This document shows positions 12,430-64,000 of a DNA stretch of 64,000 nucleotides, piece after piece. Below the pieces are notes generated by a model, which ran no database searches, was not told the origin of the DNA, and worked only from the letters and a program-made list of their open reading frames with translations. Source of the stretch: Lytechinus pictus. Its lineage: Eukaryota. The translations under genes and the position numbers were made by a program. Each line of letters starts with the position of its first letter. Position 1 is the first letter of the stretch. The stretch covers positions 47,308,001-47,372,000 of the forward strand of contig NC_087251.1 of the NCBI RefSeq assembly GCF_037042905.1, read 5' to 3'.

Positions 12430-15400
12430 ATGGCGTCAGCTAAGAGAAATACAGTCAGAGTTGGCATTTTAACAGGTGAGTTGAATTTCAATTCTTTAAT
12501 CACTTTTTATGATTTGGTTTGGATGAAATCTACTGTTTTCCTGGGCAATTGTCTGCCTATTACGACTTTAGTCCCACATGCTTAAAAATATGTTTGTAAA
12601 TTGTCGCTTGTTGTAAACTGGCGTAGCCTACTCCATATTAGAATTGTATAGATTTGTTTTGGCTGATTGAGGAATTATTTTCCTTGATTTCAATAAGATC
12701 TAGAAATAAGATGGGTCTCCCTAAAGCTAAAACAAAGGAATTATTGATATATTGGAGAGGACCAGGCCCGGGGGGGGGGGGGGGGCTTACCACAACTCGT
12801 GGGGAATGAAAAGAGAGGGCATGGAGCCATGGGGGGGGGGGCAGGCGCGTAGCCAGGGGGGGGCGGTGGGGGCGGTCGCCCCCCCCAAAAAAACGTCCCC
12901 AAAAAGAAAAAAAAAGGAAAAAAAGTGAGGAGAAAAGGAAAAGGGAAGGGAGGAAAGGGAAGAAAGGTAGCTTTGTTGTTTTTTTTTTTATTCTTTATTT
13001 TTTTTCCCAAAAGAGAAACCCCTTCTCTCTTGCTCTAAATTTATATATGAATTTTGCTTCCGCGCTGCGCGCGGTTAAATGACAATATTGAAGTTCTCCA
13101 TTGTTTCCCCCACCCTTTCTCTAAGTCTAACCCTGTTTTTCCACCTCAGCTATATGTGTTTCTTGCCAGTTAAAGTTCAAATGTACACATTAGGGCATGG
13201 AATTTGAGTAAGATTAGGCCGAACTATATGAAGTTATCTTTTTTTATAATTAATCGCGCAACTTCTGGTCGGGTCGGCTCCGGGCGGGTAAAATCTTTAT
13301 ATCAATTTCTGCTGTCACCTCCATAAAGTCAACTTTCCCGCTTTTCAGCTCATTACTAAACAACCATAATTTTGGGGCAAACAGGTTCCTAATTTAAAAA
13401 GAAGAAGGTATAAAATTTGTGTCGTATTAAATAAAAAGTACAATATTTTTATCGAATTCTATTAAACTTCATGTCATTTCCCTGCACATTCATCTCCTGT
13501 CCTGTTTTGCGCCCTCAGTTTGAAATTTTGAATGACACTTGAGTTTCTTTATACACTACTCAAAAAAAGTTAAGGACCACTTTTTAAAACGTACATAAAG
13601 ATTTTATACAAGGTGTTTTATTTCTGGAAATACCTCAGTACAACTGTCCTAAATGTCCTTAAACACGCTGTAATCAATTTCACGCATGGGTGGTTTCAGT
13701 TGTTGCACAATGTCTCTCGCATCACTGCACATCCTGAAAAGTGGGCCCCGAGGGGTATCAGCTACCGACATGAAGTGGTAAAAACGAATGTCTGAGTGTC
13801 TTTCAGGCAGTTCAGTAACGAGTGTGACCACCTCCTGCAGCAATAACGGCTTCACAGCGCTGTCTCATGGAGCTGATGAGGCGATTGATGTCTCTGACGT
13901 CCAGTGCATCCCATGCAGCCTCCAGAGCCACACCCAGCTGCTGCAGTCCAAGTGGATGGGCTTCGAGCTGCTCGAGACTCCTCCCCATCATGTCCCAGAC
14001 GTGCTCTATCGGGTTTAAGTCCGGGGACCTCGCTGGCCACTCCATACGCTCAATCCCCTGGCCCTCAAGGAACTCGGTCACCACCCTAGCTCGGTGGGCA
14101 CGGGCATTGTCATCCATGAAAATGATGTTTTGTCCCACATTTTCTGCAAATGGCACCACTATAGGTTCAAGGACCTCATCCCTGTACCTCACTCCTGTCA
14201 TTGCTCCCCCTGGGACCACGTAGAGACGAGTACGGTTGGCGTAGGTGATGCCTCCCCACACCATGACGCTGCCTCCCCCATAACGGTCATGTTCTGCAAT
14301 ACAGGGGTCTGCAAATCTCTCTCCTGGTCGCCTCCAGACTCTCGAACGTCCATCATTGTGGTCAAGGGAAAATCTGCTCTCATCTGTGAACAGAACTCTA
14401 CGCCATTGCTGTCTGGTCCATCTGACATGCTCCCGGGCCCAGTTGAGACGAATTCTTCTGTGAGCAGGGGTGAGTGGGACACACTGAGCTGGCCGTCTGG
14501 CATGCATATTGGCTCTGTGAAGTCGGTTACGGATTGTTTGAGTGGAAACAATCACTCCAGTTGCTGCAGCGAAGTCATTGTTGAGGCGGCGTGCACTGTG
14601 AAAGCGGTTGCGGAGGCTGAGATTCGTCAAGTAGCGATCATCTCTAGGGGTTGTCGAAACTGGTCGGCCACTGCGGGGTCTCTCGTGTGTGTCCCACTCA
14701 CCCCTGCTCACAGAAGAATTCGTCTCAACTGGGCCCGGGAGCATGTCAGATGGACAGACAGCAATGGCGTAGAGTTCTGTTCACAGATGAGAGCAGATTT
14801 TCCCTTGACCACAATGATGGACGTTCGAGAGTCTGGAGGCGACCAGGAGAGAGATTTGCAGACCCCTGTATTGCAGAACATGACCGTTATGGGGGAGGCA
14901 GCGTCATGGTGTGGGGAGGCATCACCTACGCCAACCGTACTCGTCTCTACGTGGTCCCAGGGGGAGCAATGACAGGAGTGAGGTACAGGGATGAGGTCCT
15001 TGAACCTATAGTGGTGCCATTTGCAGAAAATGTGGGACAAAACATCATTTTCATGGATGACAATGCCCGTGCCCACCGAGCTAGGGTGGTGACCGAGTTC
15101 CTTGAGGGCCAGGGGATTGAGCGTATGGAGTGGCCAGCGAGGTCCCCGGACTTAAACCCGATAGAGCACGTCTGGGACATGATGGGGAGGAGTCTCGAGC
15201 AGCTCGAAGCCCATCCACTTGGACTGCAGCAGCTGGGTGTGGCTCTGGAGGCTGCATGGGATGCACTGGACGTCAGAGACATCAATCGCCTCATCAGCTC
15301 CATGAGACAGCGCTGTGAAGCCGTTATTGCTGCAGGAGGTGGTCACACTCGTTACTGAACTGCCTGAAAGACACTCAGACATTCGTTTTTACCACTTCAT

Positions 15401-16909: not shown

Positions 16910-19900
16910 TTTCCATCTTTTTCAGTTGATTACAATGTATATTTTCCTTACAGTATTTTGTTATTTGCAAAAATTTTAATTTGTTATTTTTATGGTCTTG
17001 TTTCAGTAAGCGATACATGCTCAAGAAAGGAAGCTGTTGATAAAAGTGGTCCAAATTTAAAGAAGTTAGCTGAAGATACTAGTGGGTAAGTGATTCTGTG
17101 TATTTTAAATTTCAATGTTAAAATTGTGCTACTAGTTTTTGCGGTGTAGGTAGAACTTATTTATGAAAATGATCTTAAAATTTCTTGAAGTTTTATGATA
17201 TTGTGTATTTTTTTAATATGTCATATGCCGGTAGTTAGAATTTAGTTGTGTAAAATGTTTAATGATGATTGATTTGAGAGACAGTTGGTTTAGTTATTTT
17301 TGGAAACCGCATCAGAATTTAGTTTTTCATTACTTCATGTAATCAGGTAATTCCATGCCAACTAACGGGAACAATAAGAATCCATATTTCATAATAATGA
17401 TTATTAAACTCTATATTCATATCATGCAAATATGTATTCTGGAATATCACCAAGGCACTAAAATCCCATTTAATATTCAAAATAATTTATTACCATGTAT
17501 GAAAAATACACAAATTTGCTTTCAGACCTACAATTTTTTTACTATATTTTTTCTCTTTGATAAAAATTTGCAGTGTAAAACATTATCTCTCTGTGAAGTA
17601 TTCCGTGCATTGAATAATACAAGAATCATGCAGATTAATTAGTATAGCACAGCTAAATAAAACCTAGATTTTCAACAAAATACAATACTGAAGTGTTTCG
17701 TCTTATATGTGAAGCACCACTGACTCAAATGTCTGCATATGGTTATCATTCTTACTCCATTGTCTTGTGGGCGCGTTGTGGTCTAGTGGTTCTGACTCTT
17801 GCCTTTCAAACAGAGGGTTGCTGGTTCGAATCCCAGCCATGGCGTGTTTTCCTTCAGCAAGAAATTTATCCACACTGCTGCACTCGACCCAGGTGAGGTG
17901 AATGGGTACCTGGTAGGAAGAAATTCCTCAAATGCTTGAGCGCCCAATCAAAGTAGCCGTGCTTCAGCCGGGGTACTAATAACATTATCATGTTAATCAG
18001 GGCCCACTGGTAGAACAGTTTCCAGAACTGAAGTGGCTACCCTGGATAAAATATGACATTATTATTATTATTCTGCTTTGTTCCTGTCTGTCTCTTACAG
18101 ACTTGATGGTGTAGTTGTAGCTACAGGAATAGTTCCAGATGAAATTTCAAGTATCAAGGTAAGAATGGCATATGTTGAAGTGAGAACAGAGGTGAAAGGA
18201 GTGTAAATATTAGTTATCACAATCCTCAAAACAACCCAAAAAACCCAAAACTATCAGGTGCAAAGCGGGGCAGGAAAATTATTTGGTGTATTTTCAACTT
18301 ATATTTACTCTAAATAACCATATACTAGTATATGAAACCTTATGATTAAAAGGGGCTAAATTGCAACTTATTAAGGCTATTCTTTTTAAGTTTTACGTTA
18401 CTAGGGCTAAATCACCCTCACCCCCAATGCATTTTTCATTTGATGGTCCTGCAAACTATTAGTCAATTTGCAAAAGTTATTTATTTGTCTTTCTATTTCC
18501 TCATTACAAATTGATAAGATGGCCTTATAATGATTACAGAGAGCCATATCATTTATTCACATGAACATTGTTATAATATTGATAATTCTTTGTTCCAGGG
18601 GTTTTCTTTTAATTTGATAGTTGACTTCATCAATCAATGTTCCGTGATCTTTAGAAAAATGCTTGGCAACCTAGCTATTACTTGGTTTATACTATGAAAA
18701 ATTGAAGCAAAATATTTGTTGTTGTCTTATATGTCACTACTACACATATTTCAAAAACTTGACAGGAGACTTTACTAGAATGGAGTGATGTGAAGGAGCT
18801 AGATCTTATCCTCACTACAGGCGGAACTGGCTTTGCTGATAGAGATGTCACACCAGAGGTAAGATTTATTAGCTCTATCGGAGTATAATCAAATAACCTA
18901 TTTACAATGATTCTATGTACAGTACGTACATGTAGAATATATGAACAACATATAGGGGTATAACAAGAAATTAATGTCTTGATTTGTAATTCAATCATCT
19001 TATGATTATACTAATATTTAGGATAGAAATGAAAAAGGTAATCAAATTAATGATAATGATACTATCAGAAATATTGATAATCATGATACTGTTGGGTGTA
19101 GTGGCCCAGTGGATCAGTCTCTGGACTTTTTTAAACAGATGGTTCAAACCCCAGCCATAGAGCAATTTTTTTCAGCAAGAAATTGATCTATAATTTGCTG
19201 CACTCAACCCAGGTGAGGTAAATGGGTACCCGCAGGAAGTACTTCTCAAAATCTGTGAGCCCAGTAATCGGTAGCCTAGCTTAGCTGGGTTAATATTGGA
19301 GTGCCTTGAGCACCTGACAAGGTGGATATGTGCACTATACAGATACTCTATAACATTATTATTCTACGGATAATGATTACAATTATAATCATAATTTTGA
19401 AAATTGTTATATATTATGGGAATGATATTTCTGCAATTTAGATCAGAGGCCTGTTTGATAAAAACATAAATCCAGCTTGACGACCCCATCTCTATGGAAA
19501 GCCAAGCTTGACAATAATCTACTGTGAACAGAAGTATGCTTTTTACATGCTAATTCCATTTGTCTGCATTTTATCCGCAAATTGTCAAGTAAGGCTTTCC
19601 ATAGAGGTAGCGTTGAGCTAGAGTTAAAGGTAAAAGAGAGTAGTTGCAGCAAACAATTATGTTTCATGAGAAAGTCTTTTAAATCAAGGTTAATTGTCAA
19701 AATATTATCATACATCTAGATCGGTAGATTTATGTAAACTCATCCTTGTAAAATCATGAAATCTTAGCTCAAAATCGATAATTCTGATGATCACTATCAC
19801 AGAAAAGCAAATGTGGAACAGTGTATTACATGTAATATTGCTTTGAAAATACCAATCGTTTGATGGCATTCCGTGTTTATTTTGCTTATATCTCAGCAAA

Positions 19901-22900
19901 ATTATGCATTTTCCTCCAGAGCTATTTGGCACATATTTTTTTTATTTATACATACAAACACTTTGGTGGTAATTTCATTGGATTCTTTTCGAACTCATTT
20001 TGAGATCGTTACTACAACTGGTATTTATCTGTAATACACTTGCAATTACATCACATGTATTTTGTATCTAGCACACACTATGTTTGTATTTTATGTTAGT
20101 TGGAACTGCATTGCTGTCCCGGGGGGGGGGGGGGGGGGGGGGGGGCTAGTCAAATATATTGCTGTACACACGCGTGACCAAAAATAACACGTTTAAAGGG
20201 GTGTTTTTTCAGTTTTGGACGCGGTCAGCACGTGGACTCGTTAAGGGTATAAAAAACACAGATTTTCAATAAAAAGGGTGGTTTTGAAAGACTGGTCAAT
20301 GGTCAATCACGGGGTCAAACGTATTTAGGGTATGTTTTTTTCCCCAGGTTTTTTTTTTAAGACTAGCCAAACGTGTTTAGGGTATGTTTTTTCCCCAAAG
20401 CTTTTTCCCCGATTTTGGCGACAACTTGTTTAGGGGCCAAAATGTGTAAATAAAGCCCGCGAAACACTTGTTTAGGGGGTTATTTTGCACACAGAGAAAA
20501 ACTCATTTAGGGGGTGTTTGGAAATTCCTTGGTCACGCGTGTGTACAGCAATTGACTATATTTGACTGGCCCCCCCGTAATTGCTGTTAACTGAGTATTC
20601 ATTGCCTGATCTGCTTTCCCTGGTTGAATTCTTCTTAAAGAAACAAAGACATCAATAATGATAAGAAGCAGTGATTGATGCAGGTTGTGTCAAATGTTTC
20701 AATTCGCAGAAATAATTTGAAATAACCTGTTGGGGATTAGTTCAGCAAGGCAAACTTCTTTCTCAGGACTAGCAGCCTGACTTTTGTTGATAAATGCCAA
20801 CACTCTTAGTGTAACACAGAGTTTGTCTTTCAGTCTCTCAGTCTCTTCCTGCTCACCTTGGCCCCCAATGTCCGTTTGACGCGCTCTACTGCAGCTGCCC
20901 ACCCCTATACAGTCACTGTCCCAAAGTCAAATACTTCTCTTCACCAATCTTCATATATTCCAAGGACGGCTCGGCTGTGGAATTCACTCTCCTCCAACAC
21001 ATTCCCTTTAGTTCCCAACATCGACAGATTAAAAATAGTGTTAAAATATATTTAAGAAGCTTGATGTAAAACCTTGTACTTTTCTTTAATTATGGTTTAT
21101 TACCTGGCAGTCATTGGCCACTTTTATGATGGCAACATCAGGGGCCCGTTGCATAAAACTATTTACCTGAGAAAACTCAGGTTGTTTTTACCAGAGTTTT
21201 TGCCCTGTGTAAAAGTCAATGGCAGAAATCAGACTAACCTTAGTTTTCAGTTTTTACCAGAGTTTTCTCAGGTAAAAAGTTTTATGCAACAGGCCTCAGG
21301 CCCAAAGAACAATCTAAATATATATATATATATATATATATATTGTTTGATTTTTGTATGCTCACACTGGTAATTACTTTTTCTATGGTTCCTCATCAAT
21401 GATACTCCTCTGCAGGCCACCAAATCCGTGTTGGAGAAAGAAGCACCTGGCCTGGCTATGGTCATGCTCATGGGATCTCTCAAGATAACACCACTAGCTG
21501 TCTTATCAAGGTACCAAAACTCTGCCATTATATCATGACTTGGTGAATCTTTTAACTGATAATATTTGCTCTTTTGTATCTCATATTCTATGAATACAAG
21601 GGATTAATCAATTTTATTCAAAAAACAAACTTACAGTATACAGAGGTACATTACACTACAATAATACATTGTAGAAGTGGTTAGGGACCTTGAAGAAACA
21701 TGAGCTTGTTGGTAGTAGATAAGTAAACAAGGAAGGATTTATTAACGGTTCAAATATTTCAAAGTTATAATATTTAATGTGATTATGTAAATCAACTTGA
21801 AGCACATACAGTCTGATAGAGAAGACTTCAGATTTTCTATCAATAGAAAGACATTTCTGTCATATTAAGAAATATAAATGTTACAGCTTTTCAAATAACG
21901 ATATCAATTTGCTCTTGATTAAATAAAATTGAAAATAGTTTTGTCAGATTAGCAAATAGTGCTAAATTATTTTGTGTTGAAATTTAGGTCTGTTTGTGGA
22001 ATCAGGAAGAAGACGCTGATTGTCAATCTACCAGGCAGTCTTAAAGGTTCACAGGTAGGAACATTAAAAGATGAAGGAAAGGAATAGAGAGAGGTTAGAC
22101 GAGAGAAAAAGAGGGGGGGTGGGAATGTTGAATCAGGAAAGAGACACTGATTTTCAATCTACAGAAGGATGAAGAAAAGGAATAGAGAGAGGTTAGGCAA
22201 GAGAAAAAGAGATTGAGAAGGAGGGGGGGGGGAGTGGGAATGTCGAATCAGGCAAGAGATACTGCTTTTCAATCTACAAAAGGATGGAGAAAAGGAATAG
22301 AGAGAGGTTAGACGAGAGAAAAAGAGATTGAGAGGGGGGTGGGAATATTGAATCAGGAAAGAGACACTGATTTTCAATCTACAAACGGATGGAGAAAAGG
22401 AATAGAGAGAGGTTATACAAGAAAAAAAGAGATTGAGAAGGAGGGGGGGGGGGTGGGAACATCGAATCAGGAAAGAGACACTGATTTTTAATTTACAAAA
22501 AAGGATGGAGGAAAGGAATAGAGAGAGGTTATACGAGAGAAAAAGAGATTGAGAAGGAGGGGGGGAGTGGGAATGTTGAATCAGGAAAGAGACACTGATT
22601 TTCAATCTACAGAAGGATGGAGAAAAGGAATAGAGAGAGGTTAGACGAGAGAAAAGAGCTTGAGAAGGAGGGGGGAGGGTGGGAATGTTGAATCAGGAAA
22701 GAGACACTGATTTTCAATCTACAAAAGGATGGAGAAAAGGAATAGAGAGAGGTTAGACGAGAGAAAAAGAGAGGGATAGAGAGTTTGGAGGAGTGAAGAG
22801 AAGAAAAAAAAGATAGAGTGATGGGAGGCATGAAGCCATTGATAGACTTGGAAAGAAGAAGAGTGAAAATAAGAAGGGGATAATGGGGTGGGGGGGGGGG

Positions 22901-25900
22901 CAAGAGAGGGAAATAGACACAGAACTGTCCGTCTGCAGGTCCCTATGCTAATGAGCAAATAGGCAAGATTCATCCAAATCCTCTCGTGGCCGAATCTTCC
23001 CTGCAAAATATGGCGATTCATGAGATTTTCTTTCTCAACTAATTCACCCCTTTATCTTCAAGTAAAATGAAATATCATAGTATCAAAAGAGAATTTTTAA
23101 ATAAGTTCAAACACATGACCTGAAAGAATGATTCTTCTTCACAATGATACCAGAATCATGAAATTTGATATAGATTTAGAGCAGCAATGGCCGAATAAAA
23201 AGAGTTGTTTTGGTTTTCACCCAGCTCATTAAATGTGCAGAACCTCTCTAGTCATGAATATCACTTGGATGAAAGAAGCTGCTTTTTGAGGACCTGCCTA
23301 CTGTCTTAGAAAGAGGAAGACAGAGTGAAAACAGACACTTAAAGTGATTGGTTAACATTGGTTTGACTTTAAAAAAATCTGAGCTAGAAGGTCACACTTG
23401 TCACCTGTGTCTGTGATATGTTACAAAAATGAAGCCCAGAAAAAATTGCGTTTGAAAATAATTATTTAGTGCTTCAAAAATTGAAATATAAAGTGACTGA
23501 AAACACCATCTTAATTTCATCCCATACACTTATGTGTACTATTTAGGCGTCTATAAGACGCCTATTTACAAAATCGGGGTTTGCCTTGTAGTTTTAGCTT
23601 TTCATTCTCAATAATGGTTGTTTTCAGGGTTTATTAGTTCTAATACATGCACTTGTACACATGTTTCATCTTGGTTTGAAAATTTTTTAAATCGGCTGCT
23701 CACAAGGTTAAACAATACCTTTAAGGATTATGTTGATGGAAATGAAGGGTAATTCCATAAATTAGGGGGCCAATTTGTGACTCTATTCATGTCCCATTAA
23801 CAATTTACAATTTTAGTGTCATATAAGTTATCATTAAATCCCATTGAATTTTAGTTGGCTACCAAATATTGAAGAGTTAGTCCAACATGTTCATTCACTG
23901 TATCAAAGATGAGAGTTCACACTTGTATTATGAAATTTTTTGGAAGGCATGAAGTCTAAAATCAATCAGATTCACCTGAACATCTATATTCTTTCAATCT
24001 CCTGTATGATGATATATATCTTTCCATTTGTGTTTATTTTAGGAGTGGTTTGGCTTTGCCCAGCCTTCTCTTAGCCATGCTATCCAGCTGTTGAAAGGAG
24101 AACGAGCCTGCGTCAAAGCTACTCACAAAGAACTGGCCGATACAGGACCACAGACTATCAACATGGTTTCAGTGAGTATTTTTATAGAAATAATATAGAT
24201 TGGGCACAGAATCGGGATACTGAATCGGTTTATTATGGGTAACACATAAATCATTATATAATAGTAGCAGGTGGAATTGAACAAATGAGAGTTCATATTT
24301 GCACCCTAAGAAAGCTACTAGTAAAGGATTTGCTGCATCAGGACCACGGCCTATCAACGTGACTTCAGTATTTGAGGGAAATAGTTCCAGTAGACAGGGA
24401 TTTGCATTTTATGATCCAACATTAATGTGTCTTTAGCAAACATTTATATATGCACAATAAAAAGCAGTGCAAATGAAATAGGTTTGTGTTCATATTTGCA
24501 CCCATAAACAACCTGGGCAATTACTTTTCAAGTGTTTTTTTTTCTCTTTCCATCATTATATAGAAAGTATATTTAAAACTATAGGTTTTCAACCTTAACC
24601 CAACTGGGGGATCATTTGCCCCCTCCCCTGCACCGCAGTTGTAATTAATGTGCAACAGACCTTTATCGTGACACATTGCTTAAGAATTTAATATAGTACT
24701 ATATTATCTATCCTTGACCTCTGCCCCTACTAACCTTTGTAAACTAAATTTCGCAAATGTTTTGCAAAACATTTGGTATTGATACACCTAATTTGAAGGA
24801 AATGATAGCAAAAAATAGACATACATGCATTTTGTTTGCATAAAGAATACAGGACTCTTAGCTGGCCCCAAAAAATACATAGCAACACTCTTTACACATA
24901 CATTAGTGTTTGTTTGAAGTTAACATTGTGCTTTTTTTTGTCATGGCTGAAATATGAAGGGGGTCTGGTCTGAAAATCCCAATTGAAATAACTAGTGTTA
25001 AAGGTAGCTGAAGGATCAGTATTTTCATTTTGATTTACATTCATTGTGCCTTTATTTTTTCTTACTTCCTAAAGCAACCCGCTCCTTCATATAAAGAGAA
25101 ATTTATATTTTGAAATGTGCAATGCATGGATTTACACTGATTTATAAATTTAGAATACTTTGGTTTTAAAAGCATGTGCTAATGGTCAGTGGTATTGATG
25201 GTTTTGAAGAGGAATGCATGGACCCATATTTTTGAAAATTTGCTTTGAAGCATTGCTTCCTTATGATATTATTGATGTGATAAATAAAGACAATGAAAAT
25301 TATATCTTTTCTGTCAAATGATGATTAATGGCAATCAAATGCCTAACACCATTGGGGTGACATTTCATTTTATAAGACGCTTCAAAACTATTTGAATACA
25401 AGACAATAAATAATATACGACCAGTGCAAATCATGTATTGAATTTTAACTTACACTTTTGTATTCATTCAGTATTCCCTCTATTGTTTTTGAGGTGAAAT
25501 ACAATATTTGAATTTCTTTTTAAAAACCTTGTCATGAATATCAAATGCTTGAAGTTTATGGCAAATTTTGCTCTTGACTATTAAAAAAGCACCATTTCAG
25601 AAGCGTTTATCAGTGGCTTACAAAACCCCAAAAGTGAAAGGAAGTTTTGTGACCGAGGGCACTGGAAATATTGGGTAGAATTCTTAAAGGTGGTTTAAGT
25701 ATTTATCTTATGATTCCGGATACAGAATGTGTGTGTTTGGTAAAATAAGATGGATTTGCGTTTGTCGTCATGGTTTAGACTGTGGACCAATGCCGGTTTT
25801 GGGAAATTAATTTTGCCTAAACCTGCATTAATCCCAGGTTTGAATTTTAACCACATTTGTGTGTTCCATAGTGATTAAGCTTCTTCTAGCATGATTGGAT

Positions 25901-28900
25901 TTTTCACAGTTAATAACTCTGTCCTTTGGAGTGATTGATTTACTCACACAATGATAACAATGATAACATTTCAGCAAAATGACCAATGGCTGTTGCATAC
26001 ATAAGCTTATCACTTTAATGAGAAATAGAATACATTTTTTTCCTTTTTTGTTTGCTGTTAGTGTGAGGTTAGGACATCGAGGGTTTATTTCGCTGATTTA
26101 TTTGTTCTGAACTAATCAGATGCAAGGATTTCAGTAGCTTTTGACAGTTGTTGATGAAAATCACTTTTGTTTCATGAAACATTCCCCAAACATTGTGTGA
26201 ATGTCTAATTTGTTTTGTTGGTTTAGTGAAAAGTCCTGAAACACTATAAATGAAACTGAACAAATGAAACTTCTCAGACTGCGTGGTACGTTTATTCACA
26301 TCTAGATACAGCCATTCATTCATACTCAAGTTTCATAAACATATTTCCATACTAAGCATCATACTATTCTCATCCATTGCGTTACATCAAAATTGCCCCT
26401 GCTTGTAGACAAACTGTGGATACTCATCACGCTAGAAGTGGCTAAAATAGTCATGTGGAAGAAGCGCGGGAGCCCCTTTTGCAACAAAGAACTTTCAAGA
26501 AAACTCTCTTTATGTGTGTGTGTTCAGGATGCTCAAAGGCTGAAAAAGAGGAAGAAGAAAAAGAAGAAACGCAAACGGACAAGATCAAGCAGCCCTGTAC
26601 CCAGTGATGGGAGTGAGGCTGTGGTGTCAGCATCCACTTGGCACGATGAGAACTATGAGGATCGTCATCACGCATTGCCAGATAGAGGTACATCTCGAGC
26701 AGATGCCCAACAGAGTGATGCAAGCCTGAGGGTGGAATCGAGTCCTGTCGGAGATCGGCTGGGTTTAGAGGGACAAGAGATGGACAAAGAGGTGGAAGAA
26801 GCGATTGAAGAGAGTAAAGGGGATGGGAACGAAGTAGAGGTGGAGGATAGTGACATGGAAGCTGTGTCACCGTCGAGCATGACAAATCCTGTGAACATGG
26901 ATGATATCATGAGCAGGCTGAAGCACATTGATGACAATGAAGAAGAGGTCGATGATGACATTGATGATGACGATGATGATAATGTTGAGGATGTTGAAAG
27001 CCCTGCTGATAATGAGAGTAACTCTGAAAGTGAGGAGAATACCAACAGTGAGCAAGGGAAACCCCGGTCACCGCAAGCGAAACCCAGAGTGATGATCATC
27101 AGAGGAACGTCCGGGTCACCTATCAAGAGGACAATCGAGAGCGATGACGACAGCAATGGGGGTAACGAAGAAGGGGAATGGACCTTGATGAAGGATACAG
27201 ACGATTGTAGTGATGAGGAGAACAAAAGAAATGAAAAGGACCCAAGAACTAGTCACTTGTCTCCCATCACCACAATTGATATGAGTGCCATTAGAGGAGA
27301 AGTTGTGCGTAAACCATTGTATGGTCCTAAGACACGCTCACCTGATCTTGGAGTCTTTCAGTTCGACCCTGAGGATACTGTTGAATCACCAAAGAAACAT
27401 CCTAGGGTGATCTCTTTCCCACGCCCCTTTGGCAAAGCCCCGAAGCAAAAAAAGGCAGTTAAGAAGGTTACGACCAAGAGGATAAAGCCTGAAGCAGTGG
27501 TTCACAAAATCCAAGCAGGAAAGCCCTTGAATACTTTCTTAAGGACGTTCGCGAAGTTGAAAGACGTCACCCTTTCGCGTGGTAAGCGGAACGTGAAGCG
27601 CCACCTTGTGACGAGGAAAAGAGGGGACCAGGAGGTGGATACCGGGATTTGGAAGCGAGGAGAGCAGGTTCAGGAGAGGAACCGGGTGGATGATTTGTTT
27701 GCCCCCACTGATGATGGAAGGAAGCTGCAAGAACTGATTAAGAAGAATAAGAGGAGGGACGAGTATGTGGTTGCATGGTACCTCTGGTGTCCTGGACATG
27801 GGAAGTGCCTGAGGAAATGTGGCGGATATGGTGAATGCATCGAAGGTGAGAAAACTATATATATCCTAAAAGAAAGAACTCTTAATTCCTAAGTACTGAC
27901 CAGCTCTCAGATTGCTAAATTGTTTATGAATAAGGAGCTATTTTACTTTCTTTTTATAATTTCTTTTATAAAGTTTAATTTCTTTTATTAATTTTAAATA
28001 TGTGATATCTTCATGACTACATTGTGTCAGAAGTCAGAACTTCATTTCTCCTCGTTGGAAAAGATTATGATTTGCTGTATTGTGACTGTTTTTTTAAATT
28101 GTAGAAAGAATGGTCCCTTGTGTATTTAATGTTTCCCATAGAGGAAAAATATATCTTGTGTACTTTGATGTATAAGGAACCATTTTCCCTTCCAGTTCAC
28201 ATCCACCTTGCAAATCCATTTCTGCTTCGGCCTTGCTTGCTTCCAGGTTGTTCCGGAGTGTCCCACAAGCAAGACCGCCACAACTGCTCTGTCCTGGTCA
28301 ATCTCAAACTCTTCCTAGGTGACCTTGACTACTGGGTTGTGACCATCACTGGACAGCACGTTGACCCCAAGGACTCGGTCATATGGACCCCACCGCCCAA
28401 GGACAAGTTGCGCCACGGCGTGGATGTGACGGATCTGATCGTGTCTCACTGCCAGAAGGGGGACACCTTGGACGAGATCCATCGCAAACTGATGGAGGAT
28501 CCAGAACTTAAAGGGATAGCTCCCACCAAGAGGAGATTGACTCATTTGTTGTATAATAGCAGGCATCTGAAGACGAAGCGAAGAAGCCAAGTTCAGCAGG
28601 ACGAGGAGGCGGATGATGATTCTGAATCATGACACGAGCCTTGTCACAAACCCCTGTCTTCTATTTTAATGACTTTTGTTGCTCCAATATTGTTGATCAA
28701 CTCGTGTACTCTCGAGCGTAATGGGCTCATTCTCTATAAAAATATGCTACGATTGGAAATATTATGGGTCACATTATTACTGCTATTTAGGAAAGAGATT
28801 GTCCTCTGCAGATGGGGTCTAATCATGACATGAGCCTGCTTGAAAGCTCATTGTCTCATGTTAATGACTCTTATGCACTAGGACAAAATTCAACCTGTGA

Positions 28901-31900
28901 TGTATCTGTACACATGTAGTACAATATCATGGCCTAACCTTAGTTTCCAGACACAATTCCCTGGTTTCATGTTAAAGTGGTCTGAGTTTGGAGACTAGAA
29001 GAGAAGAATTTGAATTCTGAATTGTAGCCTCTCCAACCCAGAGAGGACAAATCAGTTTAGCACTTGTATTTGACTTCACTCGTGAGAATTACATGTAAAT
29101 TGTCCTATGCAGGGGCCGTGGAACGGTTTTCAAAGTGGGGGGGGGGGGCTGACCATGCAAAAATTCACAATCATATGGTAATTTTTACGTTTTTGTACAT
29201 GGTTTTGGAAAAAGTTGGGGCTGAACCCGCCCCCCCCCCCCCCCCCCGCTTCCACGGCCCCTGCTATGGGGTCTATGCCTGCAGACTTCTTTGACCTTGC
29301 CTCACTCTACATCACTCTTGTGTAACAATAGACTGGCCTCATGTATTGCTCCAATGCTGTTGATCTACTCATTTGAATTTGAGCATAATTTCTATAACAA
29401 TGTACCACAATTTGATACATGGTATATCACAAATTACCATCTTTTACAAAAGAGATATCTGCAGGGCCCCGTCTTACAAAGAGTTGTGATTAATCCGATC
29501 AATCACAACTATGGACGGCCAGCAACGTCAACATCTATTATGCATGTTTGTGTGAAATATTTTCGAACTATGATGCATTTTCATGCATTCATTGTTTTTG
29601 TCTCACCTGCGAAGCAGAGTGAGAGTATAGGCGCCGCTTTTCCGACGACGACGGCGGCGGCGGCGGCGTCAACACCAAATTTTAACCGAAGGTTAAGTTT
29701 TTGAAATGACAGCATAACTTAAAAAAGTTTATGGATCCGATTCATGAAACATAAATCTTTGTAAGAAGGGGCCCAGTTTGCAACTCTTGAAAGTTTCATG
29801 CAATGATCCTTTCTAGATATACATTATGTGATGCTGGCCATCCTTCCACTTTGACTAGATTAATGAACTGGAAACATTGTGATACAAAGCATATATATTG
29901 ATAATAATCATGATAAAAATTTTCGATATCGTAATATACTTGTATGAATAGAAATACTGAAATTAAGATATTATCACAGATCATGACTGAATGATGGCTA
30001 ATTTAGTGAAAATGAACTTCAGTTAGCATCTGCATTTCCTTTCCAGTTGAGATAATCTAAAGCAGACATTTTGTTTACAGGTCTTGATGGGTCATAATGA
30101 TCCACTATTCCTAGTTGAGAATGAAAAAAAATAAATTAAAATATGAAATAGCTCTACTTCCAAGTTTGATAATGAATTTAAAGCTAATCTTGGGCCCATC
30201 TGAAGCCTGCATTGCACCATGCTATCTGCTGTGATGATTTTTTTTTTTTTTGGGGGGGGGAATGGCAATAGATCTTCAATTAAATGCACACAGACCCTAA
30301 AAGATTTATGTTTATGTTCTGAAAGAAAAAAATAATAATACAAAGATAGAGAAAAATTTAATTAACGGCAACCACCAGCCTATTTGTTTAAGAGGTCATA
30401 TTGGTTCCAAATTGTTTGATGGCAGCATGTTCTTGCAACCATCGGCAGTTTGAAACCGATTTGGCCTTTTTTTCCAGAGGTAATGCTTACCTTGTACAAA
30501 AATCATATGGAGTGTATCATTGTTTGAAACTGAATCAGGGATATTTGATAAATGATTAGATTTGATGGTGGCATAATTGCGGTTGAAAACCAAATTTGAT
30601 TGAAGGGAATTGCATAGTGTGAGGCAGGCTTGATATACACATCTTTTGTTACCAACAGTGGCATATCGAGTGTCATGCTTAGAAATAATTCTCTTTCAAC
30701 TTTTTTAGTCGTTAATGAGATTTTTTTTTTCATTATTAAACTATTGCTCGTTTTTGCCCTCTGTGAAGTCAGGGGCATACCCTTTTCTCTAATATGCGAC
30801 TGAAGTGTAATTTTGCATGAATTTTTTTATTCTTGATTTTGAATGAAATATCCTGATTTATTTATTGTGCATGAAATATTCTAATAAATCATACTCTTTT
30901 GTAATTTGATGTATTGTGATCATTTCAGATGAAAAAAATAGGGTTGAAATATGCATTTTAGATATTGTGTAGGAATAAAAATATGAGGATCCAACTTATC
31001 GGATGATTAACTATCAACAGACTTCGAAATACATGTCCTAAATGGGAAAGAATGCCAAAACATGTTCTAGTGTGGACAAGTTTGTACCAGTAAATCCTCC
31101 AAACCATGAACGGGAAGTTGACCTGATGTCCAGATGGTTTCAATAAAAGCACAAACATAAAGAAAAACATATCAATCAAACTTTGGTTAAAGCTAAATGA
31201 AAGTAGTTGCAGTAAAACACTGATTTCGTGAGAAAGTCTGTAAGACCAAGGTTAAGTATTACTATATCATCGTGGATCTAGATCTGGTACAGTTACATAA
31301 ACTGAACTTTGTGTAATAATAAAATCTAAGCTGAAAAACGATCACACTGAAGATCGCCAACACAGATAGGCACTCTTGGGACAGTGTATTATTATTGCTG
31401 GAATAAAGACCCGACGGAAGTGACCGAATCCGCGCTTATTTTGATTATTTCTCAGCAATTACACAATTTCTTCCAGAATCCTTTGGCACATATTTTTTAT
31501 TCATACAAACAGACACTTAGGTGGTCATTATATTAGATTCTGTAAAAAGTCATTTCAGATCGTTACCACAACTGGCATTTATCTTTAAAGTGGGGAAGTT
31601 GACCCTGATGTCCAGATGGCTTCAAGAAAATTAGAAACCTAAGAAAAACATATCAATCAAACTGGTTAAAATGTGTAAAGAGGATAGCGCTCAGTTATGG
31701 TTTTAACAAAGGTTTTATCTCTTATACTCCCATCAATTAAGTATCTTTTCCTTGTGAGTACCAAGTGCTTCCAAATTTGCTCCACTAAATATACATTATA
31801 TCTGCCACTGTCGATCACCATTCAGTCAGTACAGACTTAAAAAAGTACACAGAAATCCCATTGTGCTCCAATTAATTTGGCCTGTATTGTGACATAACTT

Positions 31901-34900
31901 GTGAGCAGCTGTTTTATGCTCAGTATCATAATTTCCCCCCCCAAAAAAAAAAAAAAAAAAAAGATGTATGAGTAGATATTTTTCTTAGACATGTGTATGA
32001 AAGTAAATGGATAGAATCAAAATTACAGGGATAATTTCCTTGGTAAATTCTACCATGTCCTCGCCCCAGTGATAAGAAGAAAACAAAACTGCATTGACCT
32101 TCTACCCATTTCCCAACACACATAGGCCAGGAGCCTGCTACCTCTTGACTATAAATTTTACTAAGCCCATGAAGTTTGAGCCCTGAAACCATGTCAACAG
32201 ACCTGACAACCAGTACGTTTTTGGCGTATTTAGTACGCTTTTGCAACAAAAATACGGCAGTACGTTTTTTTCTTTAAAAAATACGTTTTTGTAAAAAAAA
32301 GTAAATTTATTGAGAAAAATCATCTCTATATGTCTCTTTTTTTTCAATCATTTTGTTAAAACTAGGTTGAGATAAACACATTTTTAAATGTTTTTTTTTT
32401 CATCTGCAAGAGCAATGCGCATTTTAGCTTGCATGCAGCTTGAGCGCCGTGATGAGCGAGTGTGCCACGCATTTTATTATGAAATACACTTTTTGGGGGA
32501 AAAATACACTTTTTTTAATCACAGAATACACTTTTTCATTCATAGAGGTTGGCAGGTCTGTGTCAATGGGCACAAAGTGCATAAAAGTTGTGTAGTAATC
32601 AAGGCATTTGTCAAATGGAGCCATACAAAGTCCCAGCGAAAAATTGACAATGGCAGAGACTGAAACTTTTGCTTTGTGTTTGCATTTAGGTCCAAACTTC
32701 GCGAGACCGAAACTCTTCATCTCGACTCTAGACCCCGCTGGTCCTCTACACTTATCAGGCAGCACTGGAAAGAAGGCCTTGACCAATGAAGAAATTATCT
32801 TTTTGATGGAATTATAGCTTCTACGTCCATGCCATAAAAGATATGCTCTATAATTGCAGAATATTTTACCTATAAGGGCACATTCAGGGATAGATTACTA
32901 TTGACCAGTCACCCAAAATCAACAATGTGTTGCTAGGGAAGGTTCGTGTAAATAGCCTAACGATAACTTGACATTCAAAGAGTAAAAATTGTATAAAATT
33001 AACTTATCTGAAAGAGTAATTCTTCTCTCTGTCAAATCTTAAGTTGTAAAGTTTAAGGGGACTAGGATTTTTTTTTTAATGAAAATTGGCAAAGAAGACA
33101 GAAATTGAGTTTTTGTGATTTTTGTATACATTATCCATTTAAATAATAGGTGCAAGAAGGTTGGTTGCAAAAAATGGGTCTAAATGGCAGAAAAAAAAGC
33201 AAAAATCTGAGGCATTGTCCTTTTAAAATTCATTTAAATGCCCCCAAACAAATGAAAGTTTCTCTAAAAACAGCATTATTTGCAGCCCTGTTTATCCCCA
33301 CTTCTAAACACGGAACCTACACAAGCTTACTATCACTGTAAAGCTCAGCTTCAACTCTCCACATTCATGGCAAGCAGTCTCCTTATATTACATTTAGTAA
33401 AGACATTTCAGCTATACTCGGTCATCACCCCGGGGTGGACTCGAACCCACAATCTTTGGTTCGACGGGCAGACGCGTTACCGACTGAGCCAACAATGCTC
33501 TCAATTCAGCCTTTCATGTTGTTTGTAATTGTAAGTGACATGTTCGCATCTATAGTATATAATAATAATATAGGGTATTTATATTGCGCACATATCCACC
33601 TTGTTAGGTGCTCAAGGCGCTCCTATATTACCCGGCTAAGCTAGGCGTTCATAGCGCACACAGCTTTTTAAGGAATTACTTCCTACCGGTACCCATTTAC
33701 CTCACCTGGGTTGAGTGCAGCACATTGTGGATCAGTTTCTTGCTGAAGGAAATTACGCCATGGCTGGGATTCGAACCCACGACCCTCTGTTTCAAAGTCC
33801 GAAGACTAATCCACTGGGCCACAACGCTCCACTGTAGATCAACTGTAAACTACTGATAACTCTTAAGATCTGTTAATCATCTTAAAAGGGGATCACTCAT
33901 TGACAGTTATTTTGGGGGTCAGGAGAAAAAAGTAATCAGAACAATTAAATGAAGAAACACATGGAACTTCAAACCCCTACAAATGCATCACAATCACTTA
34001 AAGGAGAATGAAACCCTTGAAACCAGCTGAATCCATATCAAAGAGAAAAATCAAAGAAACATATTGTTGAAAGTTTGAGGAAGATTGAATGAATAATAAG
34101 AAAGTTATGAGCATTCGAATATTGAGATCACTAGTGCCATGTAGATCCTCCCAACGGCAATGCGACCAAGATCTGTGATATCACACACGTACAACTCCCT
34201 CATTACTTTAGTACTTATTTCACTTATATTCTCACTTTTATAGAGTCTATCACAAGGTGAGGTGTTCTCTTTATGAGATGACAAGTACAGAGGTTTCACA
34301 ACATTATATCATTGATGAATCGTTTGTCATATGATTAGAATGAGCAAAAAGAGATGTTTTGGGGTATATTTTCAGTGTCCAAATGGGAGAGTTGTACGTG
34401 TGTGACATCACAGATCTTGGTCGCATTGCCAATGGGAGGATCTCCATAGCATTAGTGATCTCGACATTCAAATGCTCATAACTCTTTTATTGCTAGTCCT
34501 ATTTTTCTCAAAGTTTTGTTGATCTTATTCTTTGATTTTTCTGCTTTCACAAAAGCTAATTTGTTCCAAGAGTTTCATTCTCCTTTAAGAGATCATAACC
34601 TGAAATTAAGTTGATTTGTATTCATATGGAATGTCATTGGAATTTGAATTTGATGTCAATGGTCCTCTAAAAATGCTCTGCTCCATCGAAGTTCACTTGA
34701 AATTTATGATCCAAATATTAAAAGAAAAAAATGATTCAGAACATTAAAAGAACAAATGATCATTGACATTGCATTTCAGGAATCTAAAAATTGTATTGTC
34801 CAATAAAACTGCAATTTGCAGAGAGAGGTTGTAGTTCAGTTAATGTATTTTCATTGCATCTCTGAAAACAATGAATACATATATGAATTTATTATACAAA

Positions 34901-37900
34901 TAATGAATGTTAATGAGTGCAATGGACAGAATACTTCATGAGGTGATAGATGAAATGATCCATTCAACAAGGCATAGCCGAGTTGAATGGATCATTATTT
35001 CATCTTTCACTTCATGAAGTATTCTGTCTATTGCACGAATGAAAAAACATTCATTATTTGGTTTATTTGGTGCCTGCAGCGACAATCTCGGTGCGCGCGT
35101 GCAATGGACAAATATCGTATGGATCCAAAATTGCACGATGAATGGATCCAAAATTGCACGGTTGATGACGTCATTGCAAAATGGGCTGAATGAACGATAT
35201 CAAACAACCAATCAAATCACAAGGATCTATCTAGGTGTCATATAAAATCAAATTTAGACATCAAATATGTAGATCAATAATCAATTTTAAAAAATACAAA
35301 AACACAATAAATACAAAAGAATTTTTAGTATAATTAGGCCTGTATAATGAAATAAGAAATTAAATAGGAAACCTTAGAATAAAGCAAATAGTGGCCTTGT
35401 GAGGGAAAGTATCCCAAAATAAGAAGTAATTGTTTGGAGGCTACTTAATATATATAATTATCAAAGCAAAATATGAATACATAAATGACAAAAGTAAGGG
35501 TGAAGAAAAGGGATGGAAAAGATAAGTAAGTCCTGTATATGGGGATTAACTAGGAAATTATGCATATAAAAAAAAAATTAAAGTGCATGAGGAGGTGAAT
35601 AAAACTTGATTGAACCCAAACATAAAAGTGTGTTGTGTGTATTTGTGATGCCATGTATAATAAAACCCCTCAAAAATTAACCTAAAAACGCTGTGTCAAC
35701 CTGTTTGACCCATGTACAAAATCTATGACATGTGAAAGGTCACGAGAACAGTTGGCCATCAAGCCACTTAGGAGTGCGTATACTGTGTATAATCCATAAG
35801 GGCCAATATTTCTCTAGCAGGTCTGGCTATATTTCATTCATTATAACAATGATGTATTGAATTATAAATTTTAAACTACTAACTGATTTATCTGCTACAC
35901 CGAGTAGAGAATTAAAGGAGAATGAAACTCTTGGAGCAAGTTAGCTTTTGTGAAAGCAGAAAAATCAAAGAATAAGATCAACAAAAGTTTGAGTAAAATA
36001 GGACTAGCAATAGAAGAGTTATGAGCATTTGAATGTCGAGATCACTTATTCTATGGAGATCCTCCCATTGGCAATGCGACCAAGATCTATGATGTCACAG
36101 ATGAACAACTCTCCCCTTTTGGACACTGAAAATATACCCCAAAACATCTCTTTTTGCTCATTCTAATCATATGACAAACGATTCATCAATGATATAATGT
36201 TGTGAAACCTCTGTACTTGTCCTCTCATAAAGAGAACACCTCACCTTGTGATAGACTCTATAAAAGTGAGAATATAAGTGAAATAAGTGCTAAAGTAATG
36301 AGGGAGTTGTACGTGTGTGACATCACAGATCTTGGTCGCATTGCCAATGGGAGGAACTACATGGCATTAGTGATCTCAATATTCAAATGCTCATAACTTT
36401 CTTATTATTCATTCAATCTTCCTCAAACTTTCAACAATATGTTTCTTTGATTTTTCTCTTTGATATGGATTCAGCTGGTTTCAAGGGTTTCATTCTCCTT
36501 TAAGTTTAATTAGAGCCAAGTATTTACCCTAATGTACTTTATGCATGTTTATTATTTGTCTGGCTAGAAGAAGGTGATCATCATGAGGGAAATGATGATG
36601 ATGATGATGATGATGATTAGGAATGATATTCTCCTGACTAATCTCGAAATTCTGATTTTTTTTTACGTGAAATCCTTTGCCCAAGAACATTGTCATGCTG
36701 TTTTTTTTATACTGCTTTTAGAAGTCAAATGATATAACTATCATGCAGACTCGCCTTGAAAAATCACTTTCGATTTCTTTACTATGCAAGAGCTGGTAAT
36801 CCCGATCAGGGCACCTCGGACTTCGTCCGTGACTTAGGGACCCTTGAATATTTTTCAGATTTTTTTTCAGAGGGGAATATCATGCCTGAACAATGTCGAT
36901 GATGGTGATGATGATGATGATGATGGTGATCAATGATGATGATAAAGATTGTGATATAATGATGATCATGATCATAATGATGGTAATTATGATGATGAAG
37001 ATGGTGGTGGTGGTGGTGATGATGATGATAAGGATGATGATGATGATGGTGAGGATGAGGATGAAGATGGTGATGATGATTATGACTATCACCGTCATCG
37101 ATGATGATGTTTATCATCATGATAATCATGATGGTGGTGATGATGATGATGATGAGGAGGAGGAGGAGGATGTTGATGATAATGTTGGTGATGATGATCA
37201 TGATAATTAGGGTGATCATCATCTTGAAATATCATGATGATGATGATGATGAAAATGATGATGGAGATGATGATGAATATTTTACATCAAATCACCAGAT
37301 TAACATATTTTCTCATTTTTTTCTCAGAATCTACCAACTGTCAGTCCACATGGGCATCACAACTGTCAGAAGATCCGTAAGTTAACAGATTTTTCATTTT
37401 TTAGAAGGCAGACTGTTTAGCAACTGAACTGAAGACATGATTATTTATTTGATTATCATTCACATATTCATTTGTAATTTTATTTGTTTTATGAAAGGGA
37501 TTATCGTCAAATGGTAATATAAATATAATAGGTTGATTTCTTAATGGCTGGAAGCCGGAATGAACGGAATCATAATACTATTAAGTAGCAGAAGCAGAAT
37601 ATATCATTCATTTTGCTTTTTAAAGCAATATTACTTATGATGTCAGAGGATGAAATCTTTGGAATCGTGATATGTTGTTTCACTAGTGCTATATCCTTGC
37701 AATGCATGTGCTCTGTAATGAGAATTTTCTACTGCTTTTATTGATTGAAAACATTCATTCTTCGAAAGGTGACTCTTCTGTTATGTCAATCATGTATGTT
37801 GGGACAATGATTGATGTTTATTAACAGAAAGCACTTGTAAATCTTCTATTCCATCAGGTCACCATGACGTTGAGAAGGTCGCCAGGCGTCCAAGAGACTC

Positions 37901-63309: not shown

Positions 63310-64000
63310 ATGGCAACACTAGTAAACATTGAACAATTCAGGGTTAAAGAACTCCGAGCAGAACTAAGTAAGTTAGGACTGGAGAAAAGCGGGGTGAAGG
63401 CAACGCTCATCTCTCGACTAAAAAGAGCAATGGACGCAGAAAAGGCCACAATCGCTGGTAATGGAAGAGAGGAGTCGGTTACTAATAAGCGAGAGAATGT
63501 TACTTGTGATGATCGATCGGTTAGGCCTATCCTACTCGAAATCTTGGACATTGTCAAAAACATCGACAACAGACTCAAGCGACTGGAAGCACAGAAAGAC
63601 GTCCGTGACGCCTCAACCTCCACCATCGTTGTGGAAGACTGTCATAGCAGTCTTCACATGGACGATGCATTTGTACAACAGGCAACATCAGTCGAAGAAG
63701 AATCGAGCATCCTACAATCATCATCAAACATTCAACTTCCAACTGTGAATTCAAGAGAATTTGTATCCAACATTCCAACTAGCAATCGTTTCGAGATTCT
63801 TGGGGTGGAGGGCGAAGCAAATGGAGCAGAATCATCGGATTGCGTCAGTGAGTGGAGACGGGTCGGGGTCAACCAACGCCAGAGACGTAAGGAGCACGAC
63901 GTGCTACTTTTAGGAGATTCGATGTTGAAGAACATTGATGGTCGTCGCCTGGCAAGCAAAATGAAAGTGAGATGTCGTTCCGTTCCCGGTGCCAGGTCCG
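63310..64000 (+). mobile_element. ORF1 of a CR1/L2-clade LINE (SAP domain, coiled coil, SGNH/GDSL esterase), truncated by the window end
   Basis: Open frame from ATG 63310 to the window end, absent from the ORF track: MATLVNIEQFRVKELRAELSKLGLEKSGVKATLISRL (SAP), ILDIVKNIDNRLKRLE (coiled coil), IPTSNRFEIL, VLLLGDSMLKNID...RSVPGA (SGNH blocks I and II). Confidence 0.8.

Follow-up and report, generated by a model that had tools for sequence, protein, structure and literature searches.

Can one gephyrin gene, through the choice of its last exons, encode both a molybdenum cofactor (Moco) enzyme and a protein of a quite different kind? The question is raised by the gephyrin (Mo-insertase) gene of the sea urchin Lytechinus pictus, which occupies approximately 12430-55262 on the + strand of a 64,000-nucleotide stretch of DNA (NCBI RefSeq assembly GCF_037042905.1, contig NC_087251.1, positions 47,308,001 to 47,372,000 of the forward strand). 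This whole stretch is referred to here as the window, and all coordinates are window positions. A preliminary description, made from the sequence alone, had proposed that exon 7, the last exon of the G domain, is joined either to the exons of the E domain or to two exons lying in the following intron, which would attach a nuclear localization signal (NLS) and a Cys/His module to the G domain. Here, we describe evidence which supports the view that one locus makes both the enzyme with G and E domains and a fusion of the G domain with NLS, Cys/His and helical parts, via alternative last exons.

The two products are represented by a pair of RefSeq models in Lytechinus variegatus. The first, P0001, is named 'uncharacterized protein LOC121418192 isoform X1' (757 residues, with PF00994), and the second, P0172, is named 'gephyrin-like isoform X2' (637 residues, with PF00994, PF03453 and PF03454). 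They are identical over exactly 189 residues and split at the exon 7 boundary, beyond which P0172 continues into the E domain and P0001 into the module. P0172 implies the canonical splice 24171^37328 (written as donor^acceptor). Branchiostoma lanceolatum also has a pair of models, P0031 and P0181, with an identical prefix of 213 residues. The Strongylocentrotus purpuratus pair P0039 and P0173 was tried as a shared-exon test and set aside, as these models diverge at residue 186 within a PGPQ repeat and the split is not clean.

Transcript evidence was collected over 22800-36580, a stretch that leaves out the long repeats (22113-22772 and 36898-37276) and with them exons 1-6 and the acceptor at 37328. 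Four public runs were mapped, X1 and X2 as assembled contigs and X19 and X20 as raw RNA reads. X1 and X2 belong to one study and are guessed to be RNA; about 6% of each of X19 and X20 was read, and a junction was listed from three reads upward. The junction 24171^26528, with GT..AG ends, is present in one X1 contig and one X2 contig, i.e. in two of the four runs. In the X1 contig, 26528 is preceded by the final 29 nt of exon 7, and X2 record 8 (2794 nt) comprises 507 nt upstream of the mapped stretch, exon 7, 26528-27843 and 28245-29084, with no differences. Both X1 record 1 and X2 record 8 span the first alternative exon (exon A) without a difference, and both enter it from exon 7. A k-mer mis-join is an implausible cause of this junction, since one letter alone fits both of its sides.

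The second junction, 27845^28247 (equally readable as 27843^28245), is found in X1 and X2 contigs and in raw RNA reads, three from X19 and six from X20. Contig pieces over 28245-30867 cover the 3′ untranslated region (UTR), with gaps at repeats, and an AATAAA signal lies at 30884-30889. Raw reads over 26480-28779 all belong to the class 'first mate on -', with none in the + class, and the same class predominates in the exon 7 bin. Between 24180 and 26019 the RNA depth is zero in X19 and X20 and close to zero in X1 and X2 (first bin: 0 and 0.5), and this interval therefore holds no separate first exon. A repeat is shared by 26114-26140, in the intron upstream of exon A, and 29401-29472, in the 3′ UTR. 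It gives rise to joints 26140>29472 in contigs and reads, and the RNA signal over 26020-26479 is explained by the presence of this repeat at 29401-29472 as well.

These transcripts confirm the alternative-last-exon fusion. Both junctions that the preliminary description had put forward as a check were recovered with GT..AG ends, the second in raw reads too; the raw-read depth bears out its view that no first exon stands between 24171 and 26528, and its 3′ end near 30900 agrees with the reach of the contigs (approximately 30867) and the AATAAA at 30884. Host exons are spliced to exons resident in an intron, as the 24171^26528 contigs demonstrate, while the host isoform persists, as modeled in P0172. 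The two-product locus that had been proposed is supported by the spliced contigs in two of the four runs together with the RefSeq pair and its identical 189-residue prefix.

The exon layout is given in Table 1. Searching the window with P0001 and P0172 using tblastn placed the G-domain exon blocks at 83-100% identity to P0001 residues 12-189. Exon 7 is in phase 0 at both ends, and its donor (TCA/GTGAGT after 24171) is common to three alternative acceptors, 26528, 32690 and 37328. The acceptor at 26528 (...gtgttcag/GATGCT) stands directly 3′ of a polypyrimidine/(TG)n tract. Exon A, which is 97% identical to L. variegatus P0001, codes for the [12 protein letters not shown] tract, a low-complexity acidic region and the module's first half as far as C-x-E-G, and ends at the donor GAAG/GTGAGA after 27845. 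The terminal exon codes for the second Cys/His half of the module, a three-helix tail and a basic tail, and the stop codon TGA of the fusion frame lies at 28630-28632. The acceptor at 37328, the route to the E domain, is also in phase 0. The fusion product has 189 residues of G domain plus 567 further residues, 756 in all, arranged as a complete G domain, a tract of lysine and arginine, approximately 300 acidic, disordered residues and a conserved module of approximately 225 residues. The exon coordinates, phases and splice ends of the preliminary description are all exact in the sequence, and the joined frame gives precisely the 756-residue product (189 + 567) that it had computed; it had recognized two downstream phase-0 acceptors, 37328 and 26528, which stand, and had overlooked the third at 32690. 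Two repeats flank this part of the gene: a 112-bp tandem repeat with 5.9 copies at 22113-22772, in the intron preceding exon 7, and a (GAT)n-like array of approximately 380 bp at 36898-37276, just upstream of the canonical acceptor.

Table 1. Exons of the gephyrin gene and of its alternative transcripts in the window
Feature	Position	Strand	Basis	Remarks
G-domain exon 1	12430-12474	+	tblastn block (P0001/P0172 vs window)	
G-domain exon 2	16994-17086	+	tblastn block	
G-domain exon 3	18102-18158	+	tblastn block	
G-domain exon 4	18763-18861	+	tblastn block	
G-domain exon 5	about 21389-21511	+	tblastn block	
G-domain exon 6	21986-22054	+	tblastn block	
Exon 7, last G-domain exon	24043-24171	+	sequence; tblastn, 95% identity	129 nt, 43 codons
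Alternative exon A	26528-27845	+	sequence; contigs	1318 nt
Terminal exon, coding part	28247-28632	+		386 nt; acceptor ccag/GTTGT
3′ UTR of the fusion transcript	28633-30900	+	contig pieces; AATAAA	about 2.3 kb; 3′ end approximate
Third alternative acceptor exon	32690-32731	+		reads [13 protein letters not shown] then TAG
Canonical next exon	37328-37376	+	P0172 maps at 100% identity	[16 protein letters not shown] plus 1 nt
Canonical gephyrin E-domain exons	37858-55262	+	tblastn of P0172	

The third fate of exon 7 is also visible in RNA. The junction 24171^32690 (GT..AG) is present in six X19 reads, three X20 reads and one X1 contig, and it is the sole exon 7 junction listed in the raw-read runs. 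The 32690 exon either yields a product consisting of the G domain only or acts as a poison exon. This exon (window 32690-32972) overlaps a region of repeat-like high depth. Further downstream, RNA depth over 33380-33840 is very high, at about 1758 and 1512 in the opposite class (first mate on +); molecule ends are sharp at 33493, and loose ends are numerous at 33421 and 33688. The signal has the appearance of an expressed repeat within the gephyrin intron or of an abundant transcript there.

The combination of G domain and module is widespread among invertebrate protein models. When the module of Ptychodera was used as query, 17 of the 23 matches carried PF00994, and in a search with a module profile, which gave 227 matches at E ≤ 0.001 and 82 at E ≤ 1e-30, PF00994 was present in 13 of the 33 representatives scanned. 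Fused models were found in echinoderms (Lytechinus, Strongylocentrotus, Diadema, Amphiura and Patiria), a hemichordate (Ptychodera), cephalochordates (three Branchiostoma taxa), molluscs (Haliotis, Gigantopelta, Patella, Lottia, Biomphalaria, Bulinus, Mytilus, Mercenaria, Ruditapes, Sinanodonta and Saccostrea), a nemertean (Lineus), an annelid (Owenia) and a brachiopod (Lingula). In all, the fused architecture is seen in at least seven phyla. Among the module matches that carry names, which are a minority, none is from a vertebrate, arthropod, nematode or cnidarian, and this is not evidence of absence.

The placement of the module exons in other phyla was read from protein models rather than from genomes. 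Of the 17 PF00994-bearing matches to the Ptychodera module, three have the E-domain families as well, one from each of two Diadema species and one from Owenia; in these the module follows the G domain and precedes the E domain. These chains, P0036 and P0037 (Diadema) and P0038 (Owenia), are 1139-1209 residues long and are either real read-through isoforms or prediction artifacts; the order of their parts indicates that the module exons sit between the G and E exons there too. In P0054 of Biomphalaria pfeifferi (1177 residues, named 'gephyrin'), the Pfam scan gave just PF00994, in addition to the module. About 54 of 150 listed representatives stop at profile positions 112-115 and about 28 start at 109-117 (a hand count, mostly of single-ORF calls, i.e. 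single open reading frames, on short contigs), a clustering that fits, as indirect evidence, a conserved intron at the position of 27845/28247. We regard it as very probable that the isoform is real and conserved.

The module is also found in other company. In Biomphalaria glabrata P0170 (LOC106070325 / PUS3), a tRNA pseudouridine synthase 3 protein, it occupies the N-terminal residues 33-215, and PseudoU_synth_1 matches residues 718-830 with 106 bits; here the module could have been fused to a host protein a second time, independently. Paralogs with all or part of the module and without a G domain (P0116 and P0141 in Branchiostoma lanceolatum, P0161 and P0164 in Octopus) indicate that the module family has expanded in some lineages.

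The module corresponds to residues 518-741 of P0001, and its positions are counted from its own first residue. In an alignment of 13 modules, identity to the urchin sequence between phyla is 41-49% and 42 columns are invariant. The invariant Cys and His residues are C94, C100, C104, C110, C114, H119, H124, C126 and H150, with the spacing C-x5-C-x3-C-x5-C-x3-C-x4-H-x4-H-x-C ... H. The module is predicted to be a beta-rich Cys/His domain with eight to nine conserved putative ligands and probably two zinc sites. The poly-K/R tract upstream is a likely NLS. When the two alternative exons were scanned separately, Pfam gave nothing above noise (best AC_N, E 0.22), and in the exons and six full-length proteins no WRKY, GCM, FAR1, FLYWCH or ZSWIM3_N match was seen at E ≤ 1.

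Structure predictions were made for the whole module (model 1) and for residues 1-166 (model 2). Model 1 has a predicted local distance difference test (pLDDT) score of 71.6, and its matches in VIA were filled by the C-terminal helices alone, which resemble a helix-turn-helix (HTH). Residues 169-224 matched OsPHR2 (Z 5.7), ARR1 (5.4), LUX (5.2), Mos1 (5.1) and SETMAR (4.8), at a local pLDDT of 55-68 and at a level of Z that is common. The tail of the module is accordingly modeled as a predicted three-helix, HTH-like unit followed by a basic tail. Because these helices filled the whole-module VIA list, residues 1-166 were refolded with a deeper alignment of 23 sequences. The resulting model 2 has a pLDDT of 86.4 and places a beta sheet on the flanks of the Cys/His loop. 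Its VIA matches include Aft2 (Z 3.5, root-mean-square deviation 3.1, 67 aligned residues), AtWRKY1 (3.4), the WRKY structure 9m0k (3.1), WRKY4 (2.7) and WRKY33 (2.6), so that Aft2 and four WRKY structures make up five of the 13 best rows. In Foldseek, WRKY structures first appear at ranks 45-46 (E 1.8-1.9) for model 2. Atlas feature matches, which serve as leads only, point to GCM (0.91), ALS2CR8/CARF (0.87) and ZSWIM3_N/FAR1 (0.84-0.85). The beta part may adopt a WRKY/GCM-like fold, which these predictions leave unproven.

The module profile also matches the N-termini of other proteins, among them the fungal Diversispora eburnea P0120 (CAG8539081.1) and Gigaspora rosea P0157 (RIB05642.1), as well as P0125, over profile positions 2-204, with E-values of 1e-23 to 1e-32. 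When the fungal sequences are added to the alignment, C100, C104, C110, H124, C126 and H150 are still invariant, and C94 and C114 are nearly so. Sub-threshold Pfam matches in P0125 are to ZSWIM1-3_RNaseH-like (21.3 bits), MULE (20.1) and SWIM (8.8), and P0157 and P0128 have weaker matches of the same kind. A CxC...CxH SWIM motif is visible in P0120 and P0125. Residues 240-836 of P0125 were compared with Atlas clusters; the ten best that have a name belong to a common family or clan, and those shown carry MULE, SWIM or ZSWIM1-3.

The window product ends at 28632, directly after the helical tail, and contains neither the MULE catalytic domain (PF10551) nor a SWIM finger; likewise, no MULE or SWIM Pfam match was seen in P0001 and five other animal module proteins (four G-fused). 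Judged from these sequences, the animal module would represent the N-terminal region of a MULE/SWIM-type lineage without the catalytic body. MULE/SWIM-type transposases carry a DNA-binding domain in their N-terminal region. The homology of the module to the N-termini of fungal proteins with MULE/SWIM features makes the urchin transcript look like an ancient host-transposase fusion made via alternative 3′ exons. The preliminary description had drawn a parallel with CSB-PGBD3, which is strengthened by this homology to the N-terminal region of MULE/SWIM-type glomeromycete proteins.

The host part of the fusion is a MoCF/MogA-like G domain. PF00994 matches residues 12-157 of P0001 with 95.7 bits (gathering cut-off 26.6). 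The motifs GILTVSD, DKSG, TTGGTGF..RDVTPEAT and NLPGS.KG, which were read from the alignment and have a catalytic role, are present in the urchin sequence. The same motifs are kept in the six fused models of Ptychodera, Haliotis, Lineus, Lingula, Saccostrea and Amphiura, and likewise in the canonical models of urchin and amphioxus, whose G exons are common to the fusion. Patella P0018, Lottia P0047 and the four transcripts P0079/P0080/P0082/P0088 have lost TTGGTG, RD and PGSxKG but retain a G domain before the module, with PF00994 scores of 25.8-36.8 bits. Here the fusion evidently possesses a separate G domain that has diverged. The G domains of MogA, Cnx1G and gephyrin type form trimers, and retention of the domain with degraded motifs fits a structural role, which suggests that the fusion may need the fold of the G domain, and hence trimerization, rather than catalysis.

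The donor of exon 7 serves three routes. Splicing 24171^37328 leads to the E domain and the canonical Moco enzyme, splicing 24171^26528 and 27845^28247 to the 756-residue fusion, and splicing 24171^32690 to a stop after 13 codons. We propose that the module is the front end of a MULE/SWIM-type transposase lineage, the part that binds DNA, and that it was captured in the intron between the G and E exons before the deuterostome/spiralian split and kept since as an alternative terminal exon pair, in a host-transposase fusion of the CSB-PGBD3 type. Terminal inverted repeats or a target-site duplication around the exons would hardly be expected to persist after so old a capture. The G domain may then act as the oligomerization domain, possibly binding molybdopterin/ATP, of a nuclear, sequence-specific DNA-binding protein. 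Nuclear localization, trimer formation, zinc binding, DNA binding, ligand sensing and co-assembly with gephyrin are the properties that we infer for it. We consider the full reading, including a DNA-binding nuclear factor oligomerized through its G domain, to be probable.

Comparison with known systems shows where this fusion is familiar and where it departs from precedent. Host-transposase fusions made by alternative splicing include primate ERCC6-PGBD3 (CSB-PGBD3) and SETMAR. As in the CSB-PGBD3 type, upstream host exons are spliced to an intronic, transposase-derived terminal exon while the host protein is still made. The urchin fusion differs in keeping only the DNA-binding front end of a MULE/SWIM-type protein, without the catalytic domain, in having an enzyme domain (MoCF/MogA-like G) rather than a chromatin or repressor domain as its host part, and in being common to deuterostomes and spiralians, far older than the vertebrate/primate cases. 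It uses the same G-domain exons 1-7 as canonical gephyrin, Cnx1 and cinnamon, but its E domain is replaced by the NLS-like tract, the acidic region and the Cys/His and helical module, and by itself it is unable to insert molybdenum. Regulators derived from MULEs, whose N-terminal DNA-binding domain is of WRKY/GCM type, are known in plants (FAR1/FHY3) and animals (ZSWIM1-3). The module resembles them as a transposase-type N-terminal Cys/His beta-sheet domain, to judge from the weak Atlas and VIA leads, but differs in matching none of their Pfam families, in its much larger Cys/His loop between strands, and in that the animal fusion is without the MULE catalytic and SWIM parts. Diversispora P0120 and Gigaspora P0157 align with the module over their first ~230 residues, whereas they run on into a transposase-like body with a SWIM motif, are without a G domain and are missing H119.

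Several points weigh against the reading that we favor, some of them concerning the module and others the transcript. On the side of the module, no Pfam family was found in the two exons and six full-length proteins, the module profile gave no match at E ≤ 10 against PDB sequences, no VIA row reached Z ≥ 5 for the beta part in model 2, and Foldseek against the PDB gave no match at E ≤ 0.001 for either model. In addition, the MULE/SWIM assignments of the fungal proteins lie below the Pfam cut-offs, and we infer the direction of descent, from transposon to host gene. The fusion could then be real and its module not a sequence-specific DNA binder, but a part that binds RNA, chromatin or proteins, or that brings molybdopterin adenylylation to the nucleus or another compartment. 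The missing family and structural matches of the beta/zinc part speak for this, as do HTH-like matches that peak at a common Z level of 5-5.7 and G motifs that are intact in most lineages, with which the G domain could still be catalytic. We nevertheless think it unlikely, as the module is homologous to the very region with which MULE/SWIM-type transposases bind DNA; its best, though weak, structural neighbors (Aft2, WRKY, Myb, transposase HTH) are DNA-binding, and the degenerate G motifs in some lineages speak against a need for catalysis.

On the side of the transcript, no 24171^26528 junction reached three reads in the roughly 6% of X19 and X20 that was read, where 24171^32690 had six and three; the depth of these runs on the alternative exons is just ~1-4, too low to decide, which makes this a weak point against the fusion, though not one in its favor. 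The contigs that do carry the junction come from the single study whose RNA status is guessed, and the fused models in other species are RefSeq predictions. Upstream of 26528 the frame stays open and includes an ATG in phase at 26455, from which a transcript started in the intron could make the module alone, and models of the module without a G domain exist in Saccoglossus (P0029), Mytilus coruscus (P0019), Mya (P0050), Dreissena (P0052) and Aplysia (P0055). These observations would suit a nested, independent gene at 26528-30900 with its own promoter, with the exon 7 joins as occasional read-through splicing over-reported by assemblers and predictors; the X19 and X20 reads, which list 27845^28247 and no fusion junction, are in line with it. 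Such a gene is quite improbable, given that both contigs reaching 26528 come from exon 7, that raw-read depth is zero over 24180-26019 and the signal at 26020-26479 belongs to the repeat also present at 29401-29472, and that the fused architecture recurs in at least seven phyla. The diverged, separate G domains of Patella, Lottia and P0079/80/82/88 further show that the combination of G domain and module is itself maintained.

It is highly improbable that the alternative terminal exons mainly regulate gephyrin, lowering full-length output by premature termination, as the 32690 exon may do, and leaving the C-terminal protein without function: two competing premature 3′ ends follow exon 7 (26528 and 32690) and the choice of 32690 adds 13 residues only, but a 225-residue module in which 42 columns are the same across phyla, together with an intact 567-codon frame, requires selection at the protein level.

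With the favored reading of a host-transposase fusion in mind, its place in the literature can be considered. To our knowledge, host-transposase fusions have been documented mostly in vertebrates so far. If the fusion is what we propose, host-transposase fusions by alternative splicing would date back to the base of Bilateria and would include a case with a metabolite-binding enzyme domain as the host partner. Gephyrin is among the most studied moonlighting proteins, as a Moco enzyme and a synaptic scaffold, and a third product found across phyla would be an unexpected chapter in its evolution, with the G domain re-used to form the first half of a DNA-binding protein that is nuclear and derived from a transposase.

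Literature searches on gephyrin and on host-transposase fusions gave no description of such a fusion, in agreement with the preliminary description, which knew of no gephyrin isoform of this kind; yet models named 'uncharacterized protein ... isoform X1' exist in RefSeq for many invertebrates. The sequences are thus known from RefSeq as uncharacterized isoforms, and their biology appears undescribed. In the article of Babu et al. (2006; PMC1702500), supplements aside, the terms molybd, MogA and MoaB do not occur. A 2026 survey of Mo-insertases (PMC13262936) reports for Pinctada, C. elegans and Trichuris that the G and E domains are separate, and its article text, supplements aside, has no occurrence of 'zinc' or 'additional domain'. 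The separate G domains of invertebrates in such surveys, e.g. that of Pinctada in PMC13262936, may count this isoform.

A more far-reaching scenario can be drawn, which we put forward as speculation with little chance of being right in full. Since before the protostome-deuterostome split, the gephyrin locus might have encoded, as a second product, a trimeric transcription factor with the G domain as molybdopterin/ATP sensor and a domesticated MULE-type DNA-binding module as output. Such a factor would couple the expression of Moco-dependent or sulfur/purine-catabolic genes to molybdopterin status, might form mixed trimers with the enzyme, and would have been lost in vertebrates and apparently in ecdysozoans.

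Elsewhere in the window, gephyrin intron 1 contains two inverted, overlapping ORFs of Tc1/mariner-type transposases, at 13815-14780 (-) and 14648-15355 (+), with DDE_3 matches of 69.8 and 70.8 bits and an HTH_Tnp_Tc3_2 match of 68.8 bits. The upstream neighbor of gephyrin, at 1079-2918 (-), has two exons with a 2OG-Fe(II) oxygenase domain (AlkB-like, PF13532; 53.7 and 60 bits). At the other end, an open frame at 63277-63999 (+) starts with a SAP domain (39.3 bits) and runs off the end of the window.

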